Source of the DNA: Candidatus Daviesbacteria bacterium
GTDB taxonomy: Bacteria > Patescibacteriota > Microgenomatia > Daviesbacterales > UBA10151
Reading direction: 5' to 3'
Length of the DNA: 64,000 nt
Assembly (NCBI GenBank): GCA_016186955.1
Contig: JACPKP010000007.1
Span: 1,962 to 65,961 of the forward strand
The notes under the pieces were generated by a model, which ran no database searches, was not told the DNA's origin, and saw only the letters and a program-made list of their open reading frames with translations. The position numbers and the translations under genes are program-made. Shown in pieces: positions 1,261 through 61,925 of this stretch (position 1 is its first letter; the number at the start of each line of letters is the position of its first letter).

Positions 1261-1423
1261 TCTAATTTGATTTAGCTAGGCATCTCTCCTTTTTTGCTGC
1301 GGGATTGTACACTTTTAGTCGGCACTCACTGCGTTCTAACCTGGCACATCGGAGGTGGCAGGCTAGAGATTGGAGCTGTTTTTAGCTATTTACATGAAGT
1401 TTAATTTGAGGGATGATTAAAAG

Positions 1424-2179
1424 GTGCAAAAGGGATTTTCCGCTATTTTAGTTTTGGTAATGGTTCTACTTTTGGCTGCAATTGGCGGGGGTGCATATTA
1501 TTTTGGAAAGCAGAGCAATACTTCTGAGACTTTACCCAAACAGAGCAAAAGAGTAGATATCAAGCTGATTTCTCCCTCGCCCTCCCCAGCGCCGGTTGAT
1601 GAAACAGCTAAATGGAAAACTTATATAATAAAAACTCTTAGTTTGGAGTTTAAACTCCCTCCAGAAATTGGGTCATTAGGTGAGTTAACAGAAGTGATAG
1701 AGCCAGGTCAAACAGGTACACAACTTTGTGTTAGTTTTACAAAACCGCTAAGTTTAATTAAAAACGCATATGCTGGTGGTTTTTGTGTTACAGAATATCC
1801 TTTAACTATGAATATTGGAACAACTTCAGTAGATTATTCGCAAGGTCGGGGGGGCACTTTTACTGATTTGCAAGGTTTTAAATATCAGGATGGAAAGTAT
1901 TTAACAAGATTTGTTAATGGTCAGTTTTTAGAAGAGTTCCCTCAAGATTTAATTACTAAAGTGCAAAATAATAATGGAGTCGAAATAATTAAAATTAAGC
2001 CCCACCTTCCTTTAGATGATGGACCCTCACTTAGAAATACATTACCAGAAGGTTGGGTAGGAGTTGTGATGAATACAAAAAACACGACTTATCCAGGTCT
2101 TGCTTTGAAAATACAGCTATCCGATAAAGTCAACGAACAATTAGTGGATAAGATACTTTCGACATTTCAATTCAATTGA
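1424..2179 (+). CDS. membrane-anchored hypothetical protein (possible pilin-like N-terminus MQKGFSAIL)
   Basis: Single N-terminal hydrophobic segment after KGFS. The conserved Glu5 of type IV prepilins is absent, so the pilin call is weak. Confidence 0.35.
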   Translation: MQKGFSAILVLVMVLLLAAIGGGAYYFGKQSNTSETLPKQSKRVDIKLISPSPSPAPVDETAKWKTYIIKTLSLEFKLPPEIGSLGELTEVIEPGQTGTQLCVSFTKPLSLIKNAYAGGFCVTEYPLTMNIGTTSVDYSQGRGGTFTDLQGFKYQDGKYLTRFVNGQFLEEFPQDLITKVQNNNGVEIIKIKPHLPLDDGPSLRNTLPEGWVGVVMNTKNTTYPGLALKIQLSDKVNEQLVDKILSTFQFN

Positions 2180-2217: not shown

Positions 2218-3066
2218 ATGCCATATGGTGATGGGATAGAAAGGATTAATTGCTATTCTTTGACGGATTTTCATGATTTTGATTTTTGCCCTTTCAGGTT
2301 TTTTGTCAAACACCACTTAAACAAAAAATATGAAATTGAAGAAGGAAACCCCGCTATGGCTTTGGGGAGCTTGCTGGACCAGTCAATCAAGCTTTTTCAC
2401 AAATCCAAAGCTTATGGGCAGCCATCGGAATATCTGATCAATATTGTCAGGGCTGCATTCAATGAGATCAGAGAAAATGTGGCCAGAACTTCCGGCCCCT
2501 CGTTTTATTCAAGCATCGTGCCGTTTCTGGACCATTCAGTAATTTCAGAGGCCAATAAAATTTTCGTCAGTTACTACGGGGCCAGAAATAAAAAAATTAA
2601 TAGGTCTTTGGGGTATGAAAGATTTTCTGAATGGGTAATGGAAGGGGAAGACGGTAGATTCAAACTCTGGGGCGGAGCGGATGCTTATGAGATAGGTGAT
2701 GACGGTATGCCTGAGGTGGTAGATTACAAATCCAGGCAGAATTTAGAAAAAGGCAAAAACAATCTTGATATGGATTTGATGCCCAAAATCTATGTGCTTT
2801 TGGCTTCAAAATTCCTCAAAAATAAGGGATATGATAAAGCCAGGTTTAAAGTCAGGATCTGGCAAGACCCTTTAAATGAGGATTATTATGAGGAGTTTGA
2901 CCTGCAAAAAATTGGGGATCAGGAAAACCTGTTTAAGCAAAAAATTAATAGGATTTTGGCTGTTTCAGAGATAAAGTTTTGCGGGAGGGAATTTTGTAAA
3001 GCTTGTAAATCAGATAAAAGAGATGAGTTGATAAAAAGTTTAGCTGGGATGGGAATTTATGTTTAA
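2218..3066 (+). CDS. PD-(D/E)xK nuclease of the Cas4/RecB-like type with Cys cluster
   Basis: N-terminal Cys pair (INCYS, DFCPF). Motifs D(AYEIGDD)...EVVDYK (ExK) and a QxxxY-like PKIYVL. C-terminal C-x4-C-x2-C (CGREFCKAC) fits a 4Fe-4S Cas4/DUF83 arrangement. Confidence 0.5.
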   Translation: MPYGDGIERINCYSLTDFHDFDFCPFRFFVKHHLNKKYEIEEGNPAMALGSLLDQSIKLFHKSKAYGQPSEYLINIVRAAFNEIRENVARTSGPSFYSSIVPFLDHSVISEANKIFVSYYGARNKKINRSLGYERFSEWVMEGEDGRFKLWGGADAYEIGDDGMPEVVDYKSRQNLEKGKNNLDMDLMPKIYVLLASKFLKNKGYDKARFKVRIWQDPLNEDYYEEFDLQKIGDQENLFKQKINRILAVSEIKFCGREFCKACKSDKRDELIKSLAGMGIYV

Positions 3067-35526: not shown

Positions 35527-36324
35527 ATGATCCAGACATTACTGGGCACTAAAAAATTTATGACTTCAACTTATGATTCCCGCGGCAGGCGGGTGGGTGC
35601 AACAGTGGTTGAAATGAACCCGAATATGGTCACGCAAATTAAAGATAAGGAAGGGAAAGACGGATACGATGCTGTGCAATTGGGTTATGGAACTAAAAAG
35701 AGCGTAAAAAAACCCCAGATTGGTCATGCAAAAAAAGCCGGAGTTGAGGGTAAGATCAGGTGGATGCGTGAAGTTAGGGCTAGCGAGACTGTAAAACCTG
35801 GCGACCAGATCAGTTTGGGCCAGGTTTTTTCTGTTGGTGATGCAGTTAAAATAACAGGGGTAAGCAAGGGTAAAGGGTTTCAGGGTGGAGTCAGAAGGCA
35901 TGGATTCCATGGAGGGCCAAAAACCCATGGCCAATCAGACCGCCACCGGGCGCCAGGTTCCATCGGGGCCGGTACAACTCCGGGCCGGGTTTACAAGGGT
36001 AAAAGAATGGCAGGGCATATGGGAGTGGAGAGGGTGAGTTATAAAGGTTTGGAGGTTGTCAAAGTGGATAAACAAAACAACCTGTTGACTATCAAAGGCG
36101 GTGTGCCTGGTCCGGCAGGAGGATTTGTAATAGTTGAAAAACAAGGACGGATAAAAGGTTATACGCCACCACCTGAGGAAAAACCTGAAGAGGAAGAATT
36201 AGAGTCAAGTGACAACACCTCGGAGGTGAAGTCAGAAGAGCCAAAAGTTGAAGCAACAGAAGAGGTTGAATCTACTGAAAGTTCCGATGAGGTAAAGGAG
36301 GAAACAGGAAATGGCAGTAATTAA
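35527..36324 (+). CDS. rplC: 50S ribosomal protein L3 with acidic C-terminal tail
   Basis: L3 core (GVSKGKGFQGGVRRHGF); about 50 aa of Glu/Ser-rich extension. Confidence 0.9.
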   Translation: MIQTLLGTKKFMTSTYDSRGRRVGATVVEMNPNMVTQIKDKEGKDGYDAVQLGYGTKKSVKKPQIGHAKKAGVEGKIRWMREVRASETVKPGDQISLGQVFSVGDAVKITGVSKGKGFQGGVRRHGFHGGPKTHGQSDRHRAPGSIGAGTTPGRVYKGKRMAGHMGVERVSYKGLEVVKVDKQNNLLTIKGGVPGPAGGFVIVEKQGRIKGYTPPPEEKPEEEELESSDNTSEVKSEEPKVEATEEVESTESSDEVKEETGNGSN

Positions 36325-37180
36325 GTCAAAAGTCAAAAGCCCGTCTGCCGGACGGGCAGGTCAAAAGTCAAAAGTATCAAGAAAAGATTCTGTCGCCCCG
36401 AGTAACTCGGGGATCCAGAATGACAAAAAACCAAAAAAGACTAAAAAAGTTGCAGGAGTAAATAAGATTGCCACGTCCTCCGAAAAGGTTAAAAAACCTA
36501 TAGTTAAAACTAAGACAACATCAAATTTGTCAATTCCTGTTTATTCTCTGGCAGGCAGCAAGACCGCAGCAAGTTTGGCATTGCCTAAAGAAATTTTTGG
36601 CGCCAAAGTAAACAAAGCCTTGCTTGCCCAGGCGATGAGGGTTTACCTTAATAATCAGAAAAGCCATTGGTCAAATACCAAAACCCGTGGTGAAGTAAAA
36701 GGGTCAACCAGGAAAATTTTTAAACAAAAAGGCACCGGCAGGGCAAGACATGGGGCAATCAGGGCCCCAATTTTTGTGGGCGGGGGGATTGCTTTGGGGC
36801 CAAAAAACCGGAAGGTAGTTTTGGATCTGCCCGCAAAAATGAAAAATGCGGCGCTGGTTTCAGCCTTAGCACAAAAAGCAGATGAGAAGCAGGTTTTAGG
36901 GATCAGCGGCTTGGATAAAGCAAGCGGAAAAACCAAAGAGATGATAGGCTTAGTCACAAGAGTCCAGAGTCAAGAGTCCAGTAAAAAAAGTATTTTGATT
37001 GTGGTGGGGGAGAAGATAGAAAATGCTGCTAGGGCTGTGAGAAATATTACAGGGGTAGATTTACTGCAATTTGACCAGATTAATGCTTATGAAGTAATTA
37101 AACACCAAAGCCTGGTTTTAACAAAGGAAGCTGTTGAAAAATTGCAGGGAAGACTATTGGGTAAAAAGGAGGCTAAATAA
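36311..37180 (+). CDS. rplD: 50S ribosomal protein L4 with ~80-aa Lys-rich N-terminal extension
   Basis: L4 core from about IPVYSLAG. The N-terminal extension contains the palindromic element (36324-36374) in-frame. Confidence 0.9.
   Translation: MAVIKSKVKSPSAGRAGQKSKVSRKDSVAPSNSGIQNDKKPKKTKKVAGVNKIATSSEKVKKPIVKTKTTSNLSIPVYSLAGSKTAASLALPKEIFGAKVNKALLAQAMRVYLNNQKSHWSNTKTRGEVKGSTRKIFKQKGTGRARHGAIRAPIFVGGGIALGPKNRKVVLDLPAKMKNAALVSALAQKADEKQVLGISGLDKASGKTKEMIGLVTRVQSQESSKKSILIVVGEKIENAARAVRNITGVDLLQFDQINAYEVIKHQSLVLTKEAVEKLQGRLLGKKEAK
36324..36374. repeat. GTCAAAA(x2)-GCCCGTCTGCCGGACGGGCAGG-GTCAAAA(x2) palindromic element, in-frame in rplD
   Basis: Encodes KSKVKSPSAGRAGQKSKV; family members at 37599, 38199, 47643, 44466 and 49419. 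Confidence 0.75.
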
Positions 37181-37182
37181 AA

Positions 37183-37692
37183 ATGACAGCTGTTATATTA
37201 AAACCGTTGGTTACGGAAAAATCAATGTCGCTTGTCAAATCAGGAATGTTTACATTCCTGGTGGATAAAAACGCCACCAAAAGTCAGATTGGGAAAGCTG
37301 TTTCCGGGAGATTTGCAGTGGATGTTTTAAGTGTCAGTACAGTGAATATGAAGGGTAAAACCAAACTGCAAAAGAGCAGAAAAGGGTATTTTCAGAAACC
37401 ATCGTTTAAAAAAGCAATAGTCCAGCTTAAAAAAGGGCAAAAAATTGCTTTGTTTGAATCAGCAGAGAAAGAAGAAGTAGAAGTGAGGACAGCAGAAGGT
37501 GAAGTAGTTGGCAAAACCACAGAAAAAAAGAGTTTATTGGGGAGGACAAAGATAAAGATCAGCAAGCTGTCTCCTGTGGAGATTGAACAAAATACAGCAG
37601 TCAAAAGCCCGCCTGCCGGACGGGCAGGTCAAAAGGCAAAAGTTAAAAGTACAAGTAAAAAATTAAAAGTAAACAAGAAAGGAGCTAAGTAA
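37183..37692 (+). CDS. rplW: 50S ribosomal protein L23 with C-terminal extension
   Basis: L23 core; the C-terminal 70 aa are Lys-rich and contain the palindromic element. Confidence 0.85.
   Translation: MTAVILKPLVTEKSMSLVKSGMFTFLVDKNATKSQIGKAVSGRFAVDVLSVSTVNMKGKTKLQKSRKGYFQKPSFKKAIVQLKKGQKIALFESAEKEEVEVRTAEGEVVGKTTEKKSLLGRTKIKISKLSPVEIEQNTAVKSPPAGRAGQKAKVKSTSKKLKVNKKGAK
37599..37645. repeat. palindromic element copy in the rplW 3' extension (GCCCGCCTGCCGGACGGGCAGG flanked by GTCAAAAG)
   Basis: Encodes VKSPPAGRAGQKAKVKS. Confidence 0.7.
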
Positions 37693-38941: not shown

Positions 38942-39418
38942 ATGGAGTATACAACAATACAAAAAAATATTACTACTTCGCCCAGGAAACTGAGGTTGGT
39001 GGCTGATATGGTGAGAAAAATGAGCCCAGAGCAGGCTGTAGAAATTTTGCAGTTTACCAATAAAGCGGCTGCTCAACCTTTGATCAAAGCCATCAAAACT
39101 GTTTTGGCAAACAGCAAAAAAGCTGATGTGGTTTTTAAAACCATTGAGATCAACGAAGGGCCAAAATTAAAAAGATACAGGGTGGGTACAGCCGGTAGAG
39201 GACGGGGCAGGCCGTACAGGAGAAGATGGAGCCATATAAAAATCGTTTTGATAGACGATTTAAATGTCAAAAGTCAAATGTCAAAAGTCAAAAGTACAGT
39301 TCAAAATGCAAAAGTAGAAGATAAGAAGGCAGCGTTAAAAGAAAAAGGAAGGGAGGGTAAAAAGAGTGTGCGGACTCCCGAAGTAGATCCTTCGACTCGC
39401 TACGCTCGCTCAGGATGA
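38942..39418 (+). CDS. rplV: 50S ribosomal protein L22 with C-terminal extension
   Basis: L22 core; the extension contains GTCAAAA/GTCAAAT 7-mer repeats (39266-39294). Confidence 0.9.
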   Translation: MEYTTIQKNITTSPRKLRLVADMVRKMSPEQAVEILQFTNKAAAQPLIKAIKTVLANSKKADVVFKTIEINEGPKLKRYRVGTAGRGRGRPYRRRWSHIKIVLIDDLNVKSQMSKVKSTVQNAKVEDKKAALKEKGREGKKSVRTPEVDPSTRYARSG

Positions 39419-39451
39419 CAAAGTAAGTTTAAAAATTGTACTTACTTTGTC
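39417..39451. repeat. perfect 12-bp inverted repeat hairpin GACAAAGTAAGT-N11-ACTTACTTTGTC between rplV and rpsC
   Basis: Overlaps the rplV stop; followed by an A-rich tract and then the rpsC ATG. Confidence 0.5.
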
Positions 39452-41624: not shown

Positions 41625-41731
41625 TCGGACTGAAGCGAGAAACAATTACACTAATCCCTAATTGTTTCGAGCAAAGGAGATCGCTTGCCACAATTGTGTA
41701 ATCAATTGTGGACAAGGGAAAGGAAAACAAT
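41621..41731. repeat. intergenic element E copy 1 (GGTAATCGGACTGA...CCACAATTG-N6-CAATTGTGG...GGAAAGGAAAACAAT)
   Basis: Starts in the rplN stop codon and ends at the rplX ATG. Paralogous to 43397-43482. Contains a perfect 9-bp inverted repeat at 41689-41712. Confidence 0.65.
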
Positions 41732-42040: not shown

Positions 42041-42589
42041 ATGAAGACTTTAAAAGAAAAATATTTGGAGGAGGTGCAACCGAAAATGATGGAAGAGTTC
42101 AGTATTAAAAATGTTTTTGCAGCGCCTAAATTAAAAAAGATAGTTATCAATATGGGTCTGGCTGACGCAAAAGAGGATGCCGGTATTTTAGAAAAATCAG
42201 TGGTTAATGTTGCAGCTATTTCAGGCCAGAAGCCGGTTGTGACAAAGGCTAAAAAATCCATCGCAGCTTTTAAACTTACGAAAGGCGCTTCAATAGGGTT
42301 GATGGTAACTTTAAGGGGTGATAAGATGTATGCTTTTTTCAATAAACTTGTAAATATAGTATTGCCAAAAGTGAGGGATTTTAGGGGAGTTGCACAAACC
42401 GGCTTTGACAGCAAGGGAAATTATAATTTAGGTTTTAAGGAACTACTCATATTCCCTGAAATAAACTATAAAAATGTTGATAAACCAAGGGGGTTGCAGG
42501 TTACTATTAATACAACAGCAGAAAACAGGGAGCAGGGGAAAATGTTGCTAGAGCTGATGGGGATGCCTTTTAAGAAAGGGGACAGATAA
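42041..42589 (+). CDS. rplE: 50S ribosomal protein L5
   Basis: Typical L5. Confidence 0.9.
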   Translation: MKTLKEKYLEEVQPKMMEEFSIKNVFAAPKLKKIVINMGLADAKEDAGILEKSVVNVAAISGQKPVVTKAKKSIAAFKLTKGASIGLMVTLRGDKMYAFFNKLVNIVLPKVRDFRGVAQTGFDSKGNYNLGFKELLIFPEINYKNVDKPRGLQVTINTTAENREQGKMLLELMGMPFKKGDR

Positions 42590-43400: not shown

Positions 43401-43482
43401 TCGGACTGAGCGTAGCGAAGGAGATCGCTTGCCACAATTGTGTAACCAATTGTGGACAAGGGTAAAGAAAGGATAAAAATTT
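43397..43482. repeat. intergenic element E copy 2 (with CCACAATTG-N6-CAATTGTGG at 43432-43455)
   Basis: Starts in the rpsH stop codon and ends at the rplF ATG. Confidence 0.65.
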
Positions 43483-44380: not shown

Positions 44381-44507
44381 CAAATTTTCAAGTCACAATT
44401 TACAATTTTCAATAAATGATTTAATTTTAAATTTTAAACATTGAAAATTCATTGTAAATTGAAAACCTGTCTGCCGACAGGCAAGACTAAAAATTAAAAA
44501 TTAATTT
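44381..44507. repeat. AT-rich intergenic repeat R copy 3, carrying embedded GC hairpin CCTGTCTGCCGACAGG (44466-44481)
   Basis: Head CAAATTTTCAAGTCACAATTTACAATTTTCAAT, tail AAAATTAAAAATTAATTT-ATG (rpsE). Confidence 0.7.
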
Positions 44508-47313: not shown

Positions 47314-48091
47314 GGGAGAACTGGCGCTAATGAGAAAGAGTGGGGTTATTACTGCCAGGGCGTTGGGAGAAGTCTTGAAGAATGTCCGTGAAGGTATTAG
47401 CCTGATAGAATTGGAAAAAGTTGCGGAAAACCAGGTTGTCAAGTTGGGAGGAGAACCTTCATTTAAAACCGTCCCTGGTTACAGATGGACTTCCTGCTTG
47501 ACTATCAACAATGAGGTTGTACACGGAATCCCAAGGGATATTAAGTTGAAAAATGGTGATATCTTAAGTGTTGATTTAGGCGCAGTTTTTAAAGGCTGGC
47601 ATACGGATGCTGCATGGAGTGTGGTGGTGGGAAGTCAAAAGTCAAAAGCCCGTTTGCCGAACGGGCAGGTCAAAAGTCAAAATGATGAAAAAGAGAAATT
47701 TTTAGCAGTGGGGGAAGAGGCTCTATGGAAGGGGATTGGGCAGGCAGTGGATGGTAATAGAATAGGTGATATCTCCGGGGTTATACAGGAAGTTGTGGAG
47801 AGCGCAGGTTATTCAGTTGTGCGGGCGCTGGTAGGGCATGGGGTGGGCAGGGAGCTGCATGAAGACCCCGAAGTGCCGGGATATGGTAAAAAAAGTACAG
47901 GGCTCAAACTTATTGCAGGCATGACGCTTGCGGTAGAGGTGATTTACACCAGCGGGAAACCTGATGTAGTTTTGGATCCTGATGGTTGGACTATCACTAC
48001 TGCAGATGGAAGCCTGGGTGGACTTTTTGAGATGAGTGTGGTGGTAGGTGTAAAACAAGCTGAAGCGCTGACGGATTGGAGACAAAAGTGA
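47291..48091 (+). CDS. map: methionine aminopeptidase type I with ~25-aa internal insertion
   Basis: Pita-bread fold motifs. The true start may be the internal Met at 47324. The insertion is encoded by the palindromic element (47643-47690). Confidence 0.85.
   Translation: MAINTRTKGELALMRKSGVITARALGEVLKNVREGISLIELEKVAENQVVKLGGEPSFKTVPGYRWTSCLTINNEVVHGIPRDIKLKNGDILSVDLGAVFKGWHTDAAWSVVVGSQKSKARLPNGQVKSQNDEKEKFLAVGEEALWKGIGQAVDGNRIGDISGVIQEVVESAGYSVVRALVGHGVGRELHEDPEVPGYGKKSTGLKLIAGMTLAVEVIYTSGKPDVVLDPDGWTITTADGSLGGLFEMSVVVGVKQAEALTDWRQK
47643..47690. repeat. palindromic element copy in-frame in map (GTCAAAAGTCAAAAG-CCCGTTTGCCGAACGGGCAGG-TCAAAAGTCAAAA)
   Basis: Stem bases differ from the rplD copy in a compensatory manner (GCCCGTT/AACGGGC versus GCCCGTC/GACGGGC). 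Confidence 0.75.
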
Positions 48092-49332: not shown

Positions 49333-49458
49333 TAAATTTTCAAGTCACAATTTACAATTTTCAATCAATGATTTAATTCTTAAATTTTAAACATTGAAAA
49401 TTCATTAAAAATTGAAAACCTGTCTGCCGACAGGCAAGACTGAAAATTAAAAATTATT
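49333..49458. repeat. AT-rich intergenic repeat R copy 4, carrying GC hairpin CCTGTCTGCCGACAGG (49419-49434)
   Basis: Near-identical to copy 3; tail AAAATTAAAAATTATT-ATG (rpsD). Confidence 0.7.
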
Positions 49459-58164: not shown

Positions 58165-61160
58165 TACCCTGTTTCTAAGACCCCCTTGTTGGTAGTTAAA
58201 AAGATTAAGAGTAAACCATCTTTTTCTAAGACCTGTTTTTTATTATCATCAGATTTGATCTCCAGTTTGGTCCGGTTGGTTTTGGGGTCAAAATTGGCTG
58301 TCAGTTTGCCGTCACCGCTTAAAATTATTTTTTGGTCTAAGTTATCTTTGGCTTCCAGGTAGGTTTTATCAAAAGTAATTGGCGGTGATAAATTGTAGGA
58401 TAAACTTTTTAATTCCAGCCAGTCTTTTTTGTTTTGATTTTTTGGTTCAACTGCCAGTTGGGTTTGGTTGCCTGCCTCATCTGTTAAGTTTACCAGCCCG
58501 TTACCTGAATCTGAAACATCAACTGCGGATAGATTATCCGTGCCTAAAATATTGATATTCTGAAGCTGCGGGTTATAGATGATTTTTGCTTCCGGGGGAG
58601 TTTTATCAATTTTAATCCCTGTTTCCTGAGGAAACTCCCCGTTACCGGCATTATCAACAGACCTGAATTTTAATTTACTTAAACCTTCAACAGAGACAGT
58701 AAAAGGCCGGGTATAAGTTTGGACACTCTGGCCATTATCCAATGAGTACTCTGTTTTTAAAACACCGGAGTTGTCGTCTGTTGCGGTAAGTTCAACAGCC
58801 ACATCCGACCTGTACCAGCTGTTGCTGCCTGAGGCGCCGGTTAGTTTAACTGTGGTAATGGGGGGTGTCAGATCCGAGGTTTGGCTGCCGGTTAAAATAC
58901 TGGTTGGGGAAACTTGCAGGTCTTTTGTGCCGTCACCATCCCGGTCAATTTGTAGAATCGGCGGGTCGGCAGATCCGGTCTCAAAAACAGTTTCCGCTTT
59001 GGTATTTGGTGTTAAAGGGATATCTTGATAAAGGGTAGTTTGGGTGTTGATATCTTCGTTGTAGTCCCTGATTTTAAAATCAAAACTGCCCTGGCCAGTG
59101 GCTTCAAATTTAACGGTATAAATTCCATCATCAGGCAGAAAGATAAATTTGGCGTCACCTAAGCTGTCATAGGAACTGCCCGGGATATTTGCCTCAAACC
59201 CGCCATCAGGCAAAGGCCCGGTATGATTTCCCAAAAAGTCATAAAGATGGATGTTGACAGGCGAGTGGACGGAAAATAATTCCCCTTTTAATTTAAAAGC
59301 CTCTGCAGATACCCCTGAGGGTAAAGCAGGGTCGTCTTTTAAAATATTTTTAACTAAATTTAGCGCAGGACCGTTGCCCGGCAGGCTGGCATGGTTTTGT
59401 TTGGTGAAATAAACCCCGCCGGGTTTTTTTAAAGAAGCGCTCAAAAGCGGGACAGTATCATCGCCGTTGATTTTCAGCCCGTCGGTTTGGGGGATTTTTA
59501 TCCCGGCAAAGTCTATTTTATATTTTTCAATGATCTGGCCTAAAGTGTCTATGCCGGAGCCGGCAATAACAGATACCTGGACCCCGTTGGTGTTGTCCAG
59601 GCTATTGTCTAAGTTGTGGAAAGATTCTGCAGGGGTAAAAAGTTGGGTGTTGTGGCCAAGGTTGGTTAGAAGCTCTTTGGTCTGGGTATAGTTTAAACCA
59701 CCGGTGACGTTGTTGTTGTCGATATCCCGCAAATCCTTAAAAGGGACAGGGTGCTGGTTGTCAGACCCTGAATAAAAGTCATAATATTTTTGTGTAGGAG
59801 CAAGTTCAAATGCCCCAGTCAGGTTTTGAAAAACATCTTTTAGTTCTGAAGGAGAAATTCCTATACAAAGAGGACTCGTGTCTTTTGTACTCAAACAATC
59901 CCCGTACAACAATCCTTTTAAAATCTTTACTGATCCTAAATTTGGCGGCGCTAGGGTGATTAATTTCCTGACATTGCCTGCTTTGGTTGGGTCTGCAATA
60001 TAATTTCTGGCAACCAAACCGCCCATGGAGTGGGTGACAATGTCTACTTTATCAGCGCCTGTTTGGGTTTTTATGGCGTTTATTTTTTGGTCAAGCAGGT
60101 CTTTGGTTTGGGATAGATCTTTTCTCCAGTCATAAGGGAAGATAAACAGGTCCTGGTTTAGGATGTAGCCGTTTTGGGTGAAAAAATCTAAAGTCTGCTG
60201 GTAAGCACCAGGAAACAGATTACCGGTTAGTTCTAGATCGGCCTCCGGGGTTATCCCGTCAGCTTTTAACTTTAAAATATCAAAATAATCATCATCCCCG
60301 GGCTTGATTGCTTCCCCCTCATTGACCCAGACTTTTTCTCCTGCAGAGTAGTTATTGGTAAAAGTACCTCCATGGCCATTGGGTTTTGACCAGCTGACAG
60401 CATCTTTAGTTTTCAGCTCCGAACCCCCTATGCCCGGGATAAAAATTAAGGGGGTTTTGGTAGGCGGAGGGGGAGCGCTCAACAGGGAGGTAATTTTAAC
60501 ATTGTCAAACTTTACATAAATTTTTCCCAAGTCGCCGGTCCAGGACTGCAGCCCGATCCCGCCCTTTTTTAGATTCGTCCCGGCATCGGTATAGTTTATA
60601 ACTAAGTTATTATTGATCCAAAGCTTAATATTTTCACCTATAACCTCAATTTTGATGTGGTACCAGACGTTGTTTAAAAGCTGTTGGGAGCGGGTGGACT
60701 TGACCAGGGCGCCATGGCCATTTTCAGACTTCCAAAATTTTACCTCAGGGGTGTTATATGCACCAGTCCCGTGCCTTAAATTAAATGCATAAGCATTTCC
60801 TCCTGCCCTTCTGAACTCTATCCCCTCATCTACCCCGGAATAATTATTTACATCAATCTCAATCCGGTAATTATCCCACTCGCTGCTGCCTGTATTGATC
60901 TCACTGAAAATATTGGTTTTACCTGAAACATTAGATATTAAATTCCCGCCATTGACAGACCAAACCCCTGCAGCAACAGTCCAGCCGTTAAAATTTCCGT
61001 CATTGAAATTATCAGAAAAAAGCAGCGGGCCATCGGTTGTATCAGCAAAAACAAGGTTGGGAGGGACAAGTAAAAAAGAAAAGAGGATTAAAAAAATAAC
61101 TTTAAAAATTTTTGCTGCCATAAAGCCGGGCAGCTTTGAGTTCCGGGCAAAATATACCAT
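58161..61160 (-). CDS. large secreted LamG/concanavalin-like domain protein fused to alpha/beta-hydrolase lipase (GHSMGG) and Ig-like domains
   Basis: Signal/TM. An N-terminal lectin-like region, then DIVTHSMGGLVARNY (a GxSxG nucleophile elbow of PGAP1/LCAT-like lipases), then repeated Ig-like C-terminal modules. Confidence 0.6.
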   Translation of the reverse strand: MVYFARNSKLPGFMAAKIFKVIFLILFSFLLVPPNLVFADTTDGPLLFSDNFNDGNFNGWTVAAGVWSVNGGNLISNVSGKTNIFSEINTGSSEWDNYRIEIDVNNYSGVDEGIEFRRAGGNAYAFNLRHGTGAYNTPEVKFWKSENGHGALVKSTRSQQLLNNVWYHIKIEVIGENIKLWINNNLVINYTDAGTNLKKGGIGLQSWTGDLGKIYVKFDNVKITSLLSAPPPPTKTPLIFIPGIGGSELKTKDAVSWSKPNGHGGTFTNNYSAGEKVWVNEGEAIKPGDDDYFDILKLKADGITPEADLELTGNLFPGAYQQTLDFFTQNGYILNQDLFIFPYDWRKDLSQTKDLLDQKINAIKTQTGADKVDIVTHSMGGLVARNYIADPTKAGNVRKLITLAPPNLGSVKILKGLLYGDCLSTKDTSPLCIGISPSELKDVFQNLTGAFELAPTQKYYDFYSGSDNQHPVPFKDLRDIDNNNVTGGLNYTQTKELLTNLGHNTQLFTPAESFHNLDNSLDNTNGVQVSVIAGSGIDTLGQIIEKYKIDFAGIKIPQTDGLKINGDDTVPLLSASLKKPGGVYFTKQNHASLPGNGPALNLVKNILKDDPALPSGVSAEAFKLKGELFSVHSPVNIHLYDFLGNHTGPLPDGGFEANIPGSSYDSLGDAKFIFLPDDGIYTVKFEATGQGSFDFKIRDYNEDINTQTTLYQDIPLTPNTKAETVFETGSADPPILQIDRDGDGTKDLQVSPTSILTGSQTSDLTPPITTVKLTGASGSNSWYRSDVAVELTATDDNSGVLKTEYSLDNGQSVQTYTRPFTVSVEGLSKLKFRSVDNAGNGEFPQETGIKIDKTPPEAKIIYNPQLQNINILGTDNLSAVDVSDSGNGLVNLTDEAGNQTQLAVEPKNQNKKDWLELKSLSYNLSPPITFDKTYLEAKDNLDQKIILSGDGKLTANFDPKTNRTKLEIKSDDNKKQVLEKDGLLLIFLTTNKGVLETGY

Positions 61161-61182
61161 AACAATGTTATAATTTCAAGCA

Positions 61183-61253
61183 CGGGGAGTAGTATAGTGG
61201 TAACACGCCGCGCTGGGGGTGCGGCATCGGGAGTTCGATTCTCCCCTCCCCGA
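61183..61253 (+). tRNA. tRNA-Pro (anticodon GGG)
   Basis: Hand-folded. Acceptor CGGGGAG/CTCCCCG with C1-G72 and A73 (the bacterial tRNA-Pro identity). D-loop AGTGGTA with G18G19. Anticodon stem CCGCG/UGCGG, loop CUGGGGG. T-arm GGGAG-TTCGATT-CTCCC. No encoded CCA. Confidence 0.7.
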
Positions 61254-61335
61254 CCTTTCGACTCGCTTCGCTCGCTCAAGGTCTTCGACCAGCAAAATTT
61301 AGTAGAGTCGAAAGGCCCTGAGCTTGTCGAAGGGC
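61254..61335. repeat. long imperfect palindrome downstream of tRNA-Pro (CCTTTCGACTC...GAGTCGAAAGG; GTCTTCGAC...GTCGAAG)
   Basis: Also shares the 25-nt motif TTCGACTCGCTWCGCTCGCTCARG with 39391-39415. Confidence 0.5.
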
Positions 61336-61340
61336 TAAAT

Positions 61341-61595
61341 ATGTTCAAAGTATATATTTTGAGAGGTCCATTGAATCATCTTTACATAGGATATACTCAT
61401 GATCTAGACAATCGAATAAAGAGACATCAGTTGGGAGTTGGAGCTGAATTTACCAAACGCAATAAAACACTTGAGGTTGTATATACTGAAACATTTAATA
61501 CTTTGCTAGAAGCTCGTAGACGAGAATCACAAATTAAAGGTTGGAGAAGAGAAAAGAAAGAGAATTTAATCAAGTTTGGCAAACCAGTTTTATAA
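61341..61595 (+). CDS. GIY-YIG nuclease family protein (UPF0213/YhbQ-like)
   Basis: VYILRGPLNHLYIGYTHDLDNRIKRHQ...E...IKGWRREKK matches GIY-YIG motifs. Confidence 0.75.
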   Translation: MFKVYILRGPLNHLYIGYTHDLDNRIKRHQLGVGAEFTKRNKTLEVVYTETFNTLLEARRRESQIKGWRREKKENLIKFGKPVL

Positions 61596-61925
61596 TTATT
61601 AAACTGGATAAAGTAATCCTTTGATCTGTTTAGAACATTGGGCCTTCGGCCGAAGCTCTAAAACTGTCGGCTCGAACGGTCAAGAAAAATTCTTCGACTT
61701 CGCTCAGAACATGCGGAACACGCAAATTTTTAATACACCTCTCGCCTTTGGTGAGGCAAAGAACTTTTTTCCTTCTGCTTTCAACTTAAAAGGCGCAACC
61801 GGTGGAGACAATTTATATTAAAATCTATCTTATACTTTGCTTGAATTCCTTCAGTGCTTTAATTTTTACCTTTCAAAATACCTAAATGCTAATTACCCGC
61901 CTTGGTAAAAAACTAATCTTATAAT

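Follow-up and report, generated by a model that had tools for sequence, protein, structure and literature searches.

A stretch of 64,000 nucleotides from Candidatus Daviesbacteria bacterium (contig JACPKP010000007.1, positions 1,962 to 65,961), the whole of which is termed the window here, harbors a tRNA-Pro(GGG) gene that is succeeded on the same strand by a hairpin-rich leader and a very small gene of the GIY-YIG nuclease type. The leader and the gene, which are together called the element in what follows, are the subject of this account. The features found at the locus are listed below.

61166-61174, plus strand: promoter-like extended -10 box TGtTATAAT, 9 nt 5' of the tRNA, read directly from the sequence
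61183-61255, plus strand: tRNA-Pro(GGG), found by ARAGORN and by Rfam RF00005 (61183-61253, 54.3 bits against a gathering score of 29)
61252-61283, plus strand: junction hairpin M, stem GACCTT (61252-61257) / AAGGTC (61278-61283), 20-nt loop TCGACTCGCTTCGCTCGCTC
61254-61315, plus strand: alternative long-range pairing P1, CCTTTCGACTC (61254-61264) with GAGTCGAAAGG (61305-61315), 11/11 complementary and present in the minimum-free-energy fold
61315-61335, plus strand: hairpin M', an inverted copy of M, stem GCCCT/AGGGC, loop GAGCTTGTCGA
61341-61595, plus strand: single-domain GIY-YIG nuclease gene (UPF0213/YhbQ-like), 84 amino acids (aa), reading frame intact, ATG at 61341, stop TAA at 61593-61595
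61690-61735, plus strand: possible right-end module, M-like hairpin at 61690-61709 (stem TTCT/AGAA, loop TCGACTTCGCTC), then block ACGCAAATTTTTAATA at 61720-61735

The tRNA is the sole one detected in the window by ARAGORN and Rfam. Its discriminator A73 is located at 61253 and is followed by CC and then T, so that the CCA end is incompletely encoded. The 85-nt spacer between the tRNA and the nuclease gene is GC-rich, hairpin-rich and packed with copies of TTCGAC and GTCGAA, five of these hexamers falling inside 75 nt, while the entire window holds six TTCGAC and three GTCGAA. The folding energy of a 96-nt stretch is -33.3 kcal/mol (z = -3.25), a value that none of 200 shuffles attains. The spacer matches no Rfam family, since the tRNA was the only hit in the window, even at E values up to 10 over 61100-61900, and in six related loci Rfam likewise found tRNAs only.

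The PF01541 profile, whose cut-off is 22.6 bits, matches the 84-aa protein at 51.5 bits (E = 1.3e-13), residues 4-75 covering profile positions 4-78 of 78. All of the catalytic-type residues (Y5, Y15, G17, R25, H29, E62 and N75) are present, and they are invariant across 24 homologues. The first five of them align with Y6, Y17, G19, R27 and H31 of I-TevI, in an N-terminal alignment that is weak, and the spacing suggests that E62 and N75 are equivalent to the catalytic Glu and Asn. A profile search of the PDB returned the UPF0213 proteins BH0048/1ZG2 (4e-14) and EF2693/1YWL (9e-10), solved structures from which the fold can be assigned, and a weak N-terminal alignment to the GIY-YIG domain of SLX1 was also obtained. 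These matches place the protein in the GIY-YIG superfamily and in the UPF0213 group. No second Pfam domain, NCBIfam model or PHROG match was found in it. A longer open reading frame (ORF) of 132 aa from GTG 61197 was set aside on account of its overlap with the tRNA. The sequence-only reading that preceded this analysis had described a sound tRNA-Pro, nested inverted repeats behind it, a YhbQ-like GIY-YIG gene in this frame and a start codon right after the palindrome, all of which were borne out.

Altogether 320 homologues of the 84-aa protein (P0001) were found, the best of which are 70-81% identical and spread over several lineages of the Candidate Phyla Radiation (CPR), while the identical protein occurs in one record only. 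From genome and metagenome collections, 160 homologue loci (numbered with L) were taken in two collection scans and then scanned for tRNAs. Covariation of the hairpins was assessed by RNAalifold on nine leaders of the Pro-linked clade, and the junction stems were tallied at 29 tRNA/element junctions.

All leaders are built from the motif M (stem, TCGAC...GCTC loop, stem) and its inverse M' (stem, GAGC...GTCGA loop, stem). In the window, the 5' arm of the M stem takes in G72, A73, C74 and C75 of the tRNA. A junction stem of 4-8 bp is present at 28 of the 29 junctions in at least 10 distinct stem sequences, the variants including GACCTT, GACTTT, GACCCT, GACCAT, GACATT, AGCCAT, GCACT, GTGCT, CCGCCAT and ATCCT. 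RNAalifold recovered the M stem with compensatory changes at two pairs and the M' stem with another two, making four in total, and the M' stem occurs in relatives as GCCCT, GTCCT, GAGCT, GCTCT, GCACT, GTGGT and GCGCT, each with its complement. The combination of conserved loops with freely varying stems argues for a folded single strand that would be recognised by both sequence and shape, and the data fit an RNA as well as a DNA form of it.

The pairing P1 and the M stem are mutually exclusive. An inner TTCGAC copy lies at 61284-61289, and further nested inverted-repeat arms are found at 61283-61293/61322-61332 and 61254-61267/61321-61334. In relatives, the P1 partner covaries with the junction triplet (CCT/AGG, CCC/GGG, CCA/TG, CAC/GTG, TGC/GCA). 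An automatic search for the partner sometimes chose M' instead, because TCGAAGG is common to both, and the P1 counts were therefore taken from direct reading of the sequences rather than from a formal test.

The ATG at 61341 begins 5 nt past the last hairpin, and across loci M' ends 5-15 nt 5' of the start codon. Judging from its position 6 nt before the ATG, GAAGGG (61329-61334), the 3' half of M', is likely the Shine-Dalgarno sequence. This GAAGGR half is the only Shine-Dalgarno-like sequence before the ATG, and the ribosome-binding site is therefore probably hidden in the stem. Both motifs are translated by gene callers as spurious N-terminal extensions of the FRQAQ...PEFxEG kind. At L081 (~2870-3000), the leader consists of four tandem copies of an ~30-nt unit, TTGGACAAGCTCAAAGTCTACGACTTTA, and the usual hairpin before the ATG is missing.

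The linkage of the nuclease gene to a tRNA is a general property of its relatives. In all 15 close relatives with a detectable tRNA, the gene lies 78-233 nt 3' of a tRNA-Pro (GGG, CGG or TGG) on the same strand; these are L001, L002, L003, L006, L081-L087, L089 and L126, together with L168/L170. In a neighbour-joining tree of the 84-aa protein, the Pro-linked proteins form one clade in which the three anticodons are intermixed. More distant clades, mostly from the CPR and Chloroflexi, are likewise found behind tRNA-Gln, Ser, Lys, Tyr, Asn, Glu, Gly or Leu, and a large non-CPR part of the family has no tRNA linkage. Among the unlinked tRNAs of the same loci, the motif opens the trailer in only 2 of 16, both of them relics. 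Two types of element can also be neighbours, as L168 carries a Pro(TGG) element and, 2.3 kb off, a different GIY-YIG type behind tRNA-Gly(TCC). The latter (1388-1806, minus strand) encodes 105 aa (MYYVYILQS...) directly behind the tRNA with a 29-nt hairpin leader, and shows a 17-nt inverted repeat between the leader and the 3' end of the ORF as well as a 14-nt tRNA 3'-end duplicate past the stop. An apparent difference between L168 and L169 in this second gene was a gene-calling artefact, the DNA being identical. A mirror arrangement is seen at L103 (~2060-2545), where the GIY-YIG gene is situated 5' of tRNA-Trp, is preceded by a 30-nt duplicate of the 5' part of that tRNA, and has ends of the CCCTGAGCGGGC / GCCCGCTCAGGG type.

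Occupied and unoccupied versions of one orthologous site have been found in Levybacteria-like genomes. For this comparison, RecA homologues were chosen regardless of the nuclease, and their contigs were then examined. Six Pro(GGG) loci have recA and recX 5' of the tRNA in common, and their downstream genes differ. At L167 the site is empty: recA and tRNA-Pro(GGG), ending in CATCCCGAC, are followed by the 6 nt AAAAAT and the ATG of a polyprenyl synthase gene. L002, whose RecA is 88% identical to that of L167, has the same gene order with a 157-nt leader, an 84-aa ORF, TAA and TCT placed between the tRNA and the polyprenyl synthase gene, giving an insertion of ~415 nt; the size of the element overall is ~0.35-0.5 kb. 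At L161 (RecA 97% identical), the solo hairpin CATTTCGACAAGCTCAATGTCTTCGAC alone stands after the tRNA-Pro with no ORF, and the tRNA-Pro(GGG) of L163 and that of L165/166 are accompanied by no hairpin and no nuclease gene. Thus the recA / tRNA-Pro(GGG) / polyprenyl synthase site is polymorphic for presence and absence among genomes with RecA 88-97% identical. It had been remarked beforehand that universal synteny of the gene with tRNA-Pro would speak for a housekeeping arrangement; orthologous tRNA-Pro sites of close relatives are devoid of the gene, so the synteny is not universal. Signs of decay are present as well, L006 being a pseudogene in which codons 1-39 and the final part of the leader are gone. 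L161 also contains, between recA and the tRNA-Pro, a gene (2068-2418) for a 116-aa "23S rRNA intervening sequence protein" (PF05635), which appears to be another small variable insert, because the position is empty in relatives.

The left junction is exact in every case, lying directly after the discriminator or C74-C76, and the left end of the insertion is marked by the junction hairpin M. In eight relatives (L010, L013, L039, L078, L087, L094, L122 and the tRNA-Gly element of L168), a direct repeat of the tRNA 3' end occurs after the stop codon; L087 is the Pro locus among them. These duplicates are 12-21 nt long, start in or just past the T-loop, end at the discriminator or CCA, and lie 10-110 nt after the stop. 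Their local alignment scores are 12-18, the maximum in 1,110 shuffles being 11. At L010 the top match of 26 nt is a second tRNA-Ser gene further downstream, and the duplicate counted is an ~17-nt copy right past the stop.

The right end is variable, being located at the stop codon in L002 and ~35 nt past it in L087. The downstream flanks differ at every locus of the Pro clade, and outside the six loci with recA and recX the flanks are unique, those of the window included. The MAFFT alignment 3' of the ORF was poor, and short common blocks there were read by eye. In this way, an M-type hairpin followed after 3-9 nt by ACGCAAAAATTTTA was recognised in L006, L082/84, L083, L089 and L168 amid unrelated flanks, the block being positioned at ~4150-4195 in L006, ~715-760 in L082, ~1150-1195 in L089 and 4256-4298 in L168. 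This arrangement, of which 61690-61735 is the window's version, may be the true right end of the element. Further 3', L006 (4195-4270), L082 (~790-880) and L089 (~1215-1300) have what looks like a pseudoknot, in which a long hairpin (ATGGCC...GGCCAT) is joined by an A7 linker to a segment whose sequence complements that of its loop; it matches no Rfam family, and the window holds just its 5' part (GGCGCAACCGGTGGAGAC) at 61793-61811.

Taken together, the segment that begins at 61254-61256 and extends to 61595 or beyond, perhaps as far as ~61735, is probably a small selfish insertion at the 3' end of tRNA-Pro, composed of a hairpin leader and a minimal GIY-YIG gene. The locus behaves like a free-standing homing endonuclease gene with regard to its presence and absence at an orthologous site and its signs of decay and loss, and the best reading of the sequences is that of a free-standing homing-type GIY-YIG mini-element targeting tRNA 3' ends. 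The window copy looks intact and is possibly active. Such an element type appears to be without earlier description, as the full-text literature searched for GIY-YIG, UPF0213, YhbQ, COG2827 and homing endonucleases of Patescibacteria reports no tRNA-linked UPF0213 elements.

Several points weigh against the selfish insertion. Its main weakness is the protein itself, a bare catalytic domain of 84 aa with no DNA-binding domain, which departs from every characterised GIY-YIG homing enzyme. In the window, no duplicate of the tRNA 3' end was found, the best match being 6 nt and under the shuffled controls, and among the relatives the duplicate is seen in just 8 of ~38 tRNA-linked loci. For the genome of the window itself, the search gave no close relative whose site is empty; an exact-sequence look-up of the protein returned no contig, and P0001 is known from one record, with no sister genome. 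The right boundary in the window is uncertain, because the hairpin and ACGCAAAAATTTTA block are missing in L002 and L087. L088 (~750-1375) possesses a GIY-YIG gene of the Pro clade with a normal leader and an internal duplication of ~25 codons, 5' of which no intact tRNA was detected. Furthermore, inverted repeats may covary for causes besides folding, the protein tree resolves weakly, and an identity of 70-81% across CPR lineages is alone no proof of horizontal transfer.

A detailed cut-and-copy mechanism can be proposed for the insertion, albeit with lower confidence than the insertion itself. The nuclease gene would have no promoter of its own, and the tRNA promoter would drive a joint tRNA-leader-nuclease transcript. 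The extended -10 box at 61166-61174 is likely the sole promoter of this transcript; a two-hexamer scan, rated uninformative, found no plus-strand promoter within 61183-61341. Processing of the tRNA 3' end past the discriminator would free an mRNA beginning with the M hairpin, and M' or P1 would mask the GAAGGG ribosome-binding site, holding expression of the nuclease low. The nuclease would then cut element-free tRNA genes of matching identity in or near the T-loop, the broken end would invade an element-bearing tRNA copy so that the tRNA 3' end and the element are copied, and the far end would be joined with little or no homology. Such a model would explain the exact left junction, the variable right ends, the displaced tRNA 3' fragments and the solo hairpins, the last through aborted copying or deletion. 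The 3' arm of M is complementary to the last bases of the host tRNA (positions 72-76), reading AAGGTC for Pro, ATGGCT for Gln and ATGGCGG for Ser. A speculative and rather improbable extension is that the junction hairpin, as RNA or single-stranded DNA, guides the nuclease to the right tRNA gene by pairing.

Among known systems, the nearest precedent seems to be SegB of phage T4, a free-standing GIY-YIG homing endonuclease in a tRNA gene cluster, whose 27-bp site has the T-psi-C stem-loop as its conserved core (PMC2330249). Both SegB and the element combine a GIY-YIG catalytic domain with a gene that resides amid tRNA genes or directly after them, outside any intron, and that spreads, presumably so for the element, with neighbouring tRNA sequence, and the T-psi-C core matches the start point of the displaced tRNA fragments in the relatives. 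In contrast to SegB, a multi-domain phage enzyme with a 27-bp site, the element encodes a single, putatively active domain of 84 aa in a cellular CPR genome. It also stands apart in that it joins the tRNA exactly at the discriminator, that its conserved hairpin leaders take in nucleotides of the tRNA, and that each nuclease clade keeps to one tRNA identity. With I-TevI and I-BmoI, the element shares the alignable N-terminal catalytic motifs Y, Y-x-G, R and H. I-TevI cleaves at a distance upstream of its insertion site, a parallel to the 12-21 nt that separate the point where the tRNA duplicates start from the insertion point of the element, and hairpins hide the ribosome-binding site of I-TevI. 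Unlike the element, these two enzymes are intron-encoded and ~245 aa long with a linker and a DNA-binding domain; the element's tRNA is uninterrupted and thus has no intron.

The UPF0213/YhbQ proteins 1ZG2 and 1YWL, which are the best sequence matches, have the small single-domain size in common with the 84-aa protein, and for this group no function, tRNA linkage or associated hairpin is reported in the literature searched. SLX1 is a structure-specific nuclease, which, unlike the 84-aa protein, has a partner protein and a RING domain. Like the element, the REP/RAYT and IS200/IS605 systems have a small nuclease gene with short hairpins close by, whose loops are conserved and whose stems vary; they too show solo hairpins at other places in the genome and hairpins that take in bases of the flanking target. 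Their enzymes, however, are of the HUH/Y1 type instead of GIY-YIG, the hairpin copy number in the window is very low (one solo copy per 64 kb) in comparison with REP/RAYT, and specificity for tRNA ends is a feature of the element and not of REP or IS200. The element is neither an integrase island, nor a REP/RAYT system, nor a known RNA family.

A related possibility, which is compatible with a selfish insertion, is that hairpin M is itself the mobile unit and the GIY-YIG protein a domesticated or trans-acting nuclease, in the manner of REP/RAYT or of miniature inverted-repeat transposable elements, the tRNA-side copy being the "master" and solo hairpins its dispersed products. This is regarded as fairly unlikely. 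Part of its support comes from the far side of the window, where one further feature was found.

39387-39416, plus strand: solo M hairpin at the 3' end of rplV, stem ATCCT/AGGAT (39387-39391, 39412-39416), 20-nt loop

The 24-nt motif TTCGACTCGCTWCGCTCGCTCARG occurs exactly twice in the 64 kb, at 61257 and 39391, even when three mismatches are allowed, and none is expected from 100 shuffles. The loop of the solo hairpin differs by one base from that of the tRNA-side M. The hairpin supplies the last nine codons of rplV (PSTRYARSG) and the stop TGA (39416-39418) of a reading frame spanning 38942-39418. The STRYARS tail was found in none of the 119 other RplV homologues compared, making the copy unique among 120, and the solo M is therefore a recent, lineage-specific insertion. 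In two other RplV homologues, P0270 and P0285, in-frame M'-type inserts of the IPSEVEGS / VPSKGEGS kind are observed at the tail, which also speak for mobile hairpins.

Further support for a mobile hairpin unit is provided by ORF-less units behind tRNAs, namely the solo hairpin at L161 behind tRNA-Pro and the unit at L014, where a complete hairpin unit after tRNA-Ser(TGA) is followed by a terminator-like hairpin and adjoined by two other GIY-YIG genes. These copies behind tRNAs could equally be deletion remnants or products of aborted copying. Within the same region of L014 (1702-2120), an 86-aa GIY-YIG ORF of another subfamily ends inside the 5' end of the tRNA-Ser(TGA). In L002, L081, L082 and L089 the leader comprises between 0.5 and 2 units or has tandem copies, which, like the M'-like motifs 5' of GIY-YIG genes in other phyla, points in the same direction; the motif is 6-fold enriched near the gene, yet found elsewhere in the loci too (0.37 versus 0.057 per kb). 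Against it stand the copy number of one solo hairpin in 64 kb and the empty site L167, which is without a hairpin, so that the hairpin arrives with the gene.

The sequence-only reading had correctly noticed that the motif recurs at the rplV 3' end beside a hairpin (39417-39451), which follows the copy. It had further tied the motif to a small-repeat system pervading the ribosomal cluster, a link that does not hold. The window contains no more than four copies resembling the motif (at 39389, 61255 and 61691, and at 61317 on the minus strand). At rplV there is one solo hairpin of the family, and the repeats that populate 28-52 kb constitute families unrelated to the tRNA-side motif. These families include GTCAAAAG-flanked GC hairpins such as GCCCGTCTGCCGGACGGGC (36323-36387, 37591-37655, 47632-47696), CCTGTCTGCCGACAGGCAAG units and AT-rich 50-60-nt repeats; other repeats of the cluster are located at 44420-44503 and 49373-49456, at 41670-41726 and 43414-43470, and at 42589, 42889, 44382 and 49334. 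The spacer of L007 contains a hairpin, CCTGCCTGCCGGCAGGCAGG, that is similar to the GC hairpins of this cluster.

It is still less likely that the gene is a host gene, that is, a UPF0213 nuclease with a cellular role in DNA repair or RNA processing, transcribed from tRNA operons, with the hairpins acting as processing or regulatory signals and its absences reflecting ordinary gene loss. The intact ORF, the conserved catalytic residues and the high conservation of the family would be expected of such a gene, UPF0213 genes are widespread in non-CPR bacteria with no tRNA linkage, the synteny of recA and tRNA-Pro upstream is stable in the Levybacteria-like genomes, and the window copy is free of a target duplication. 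Nevertheless, genomes with a RecA identity of 88-97% include some that lack the gene at the same site, L006 is a pseudogene, and several copies are flanked by tRNA 3'-end duplicates. A single clade moreover occurs in at least eight unrelated genomic contexts behind different tRNA isoacceptors, and L168 has two GIY-YIG types behind two tRNAs within 2.3 kb.

It is highly improbable that the locus borders an integrase-type island or prophage for which the tRNA-Pro 3' end serves as attachment site and the GIY-YIG gene is cargo. The 3' ends of tRNAs are classic attachment sites, and the direct repeats from the T-loop to the 3' end in some relatives resemble attachment-site cores. Yet neither integrase nor phage genes border the locus, and the part of the window from 58 to 64 kb is free of integrases. 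The neighbours are ordinary and unrelated, namely a divergent gene coding for a secreted lipase-like protein of 999 aa and convergent genes of the thioredoxin-like and phosphatase types. The whole insertion, from the filled and empty sites, is merely ~415 nt, a scan of viral contigs gave no relative, no PHROG matched, and a repeat of the tRNA end was not found in the window. The earlier suggestion of mobile DNA is thus upheld in part: the tRNA 3' flank appears to be an insertion site and the GIY-YIG gene mobile or selfish in behaviour, but a segment of ~0.35-0.5 kb with no integrase is not an integrase-type island. Finally, hairpins are common after tRNA genes, but the palindrome is hardly credible as a mere tRNA terminator or a chance GC-rich stretch next to which the nuclease gene lies by coincidence, as its hairpins have no T-run (a terminator scan, rated uninformative, was empty there), the architecture with covarying stems recurs in ~30 loci of many lineages, and no motif matches are expected by chance.

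If the selfish insertion is real, the widespread UPF0213/YhbQ proteins would for the first time have a functional context, that of selfish nucleases linked to particular tRNA genes, and the element would constitute a new class of very small mobile elements (~0.35-0.5 kb) that is common in the genomes of Patescibacteria and Chloroflexi. A homing nuclease consisting of the catalytic domain only poses the question of where its target specificity comes from; should the guide idea be true, nucleic-acid-guided, hairpin-dependent GIY-YIG mobile elements would exist, and the UPF0213/YhbQ family would gain a first function. For genome annotation, tRNA-adjacent GIY-YIG ORFs in metagenome bins would be better regarded as mobile elements than as "excinuclease" fragments, and the element would account for recurrent GC-rich hairpin motifs that are mistranslated as N-terminal extensions. 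Such hairpins can also change how an essential gene terminates at its 3' end, as is the case for rplV.

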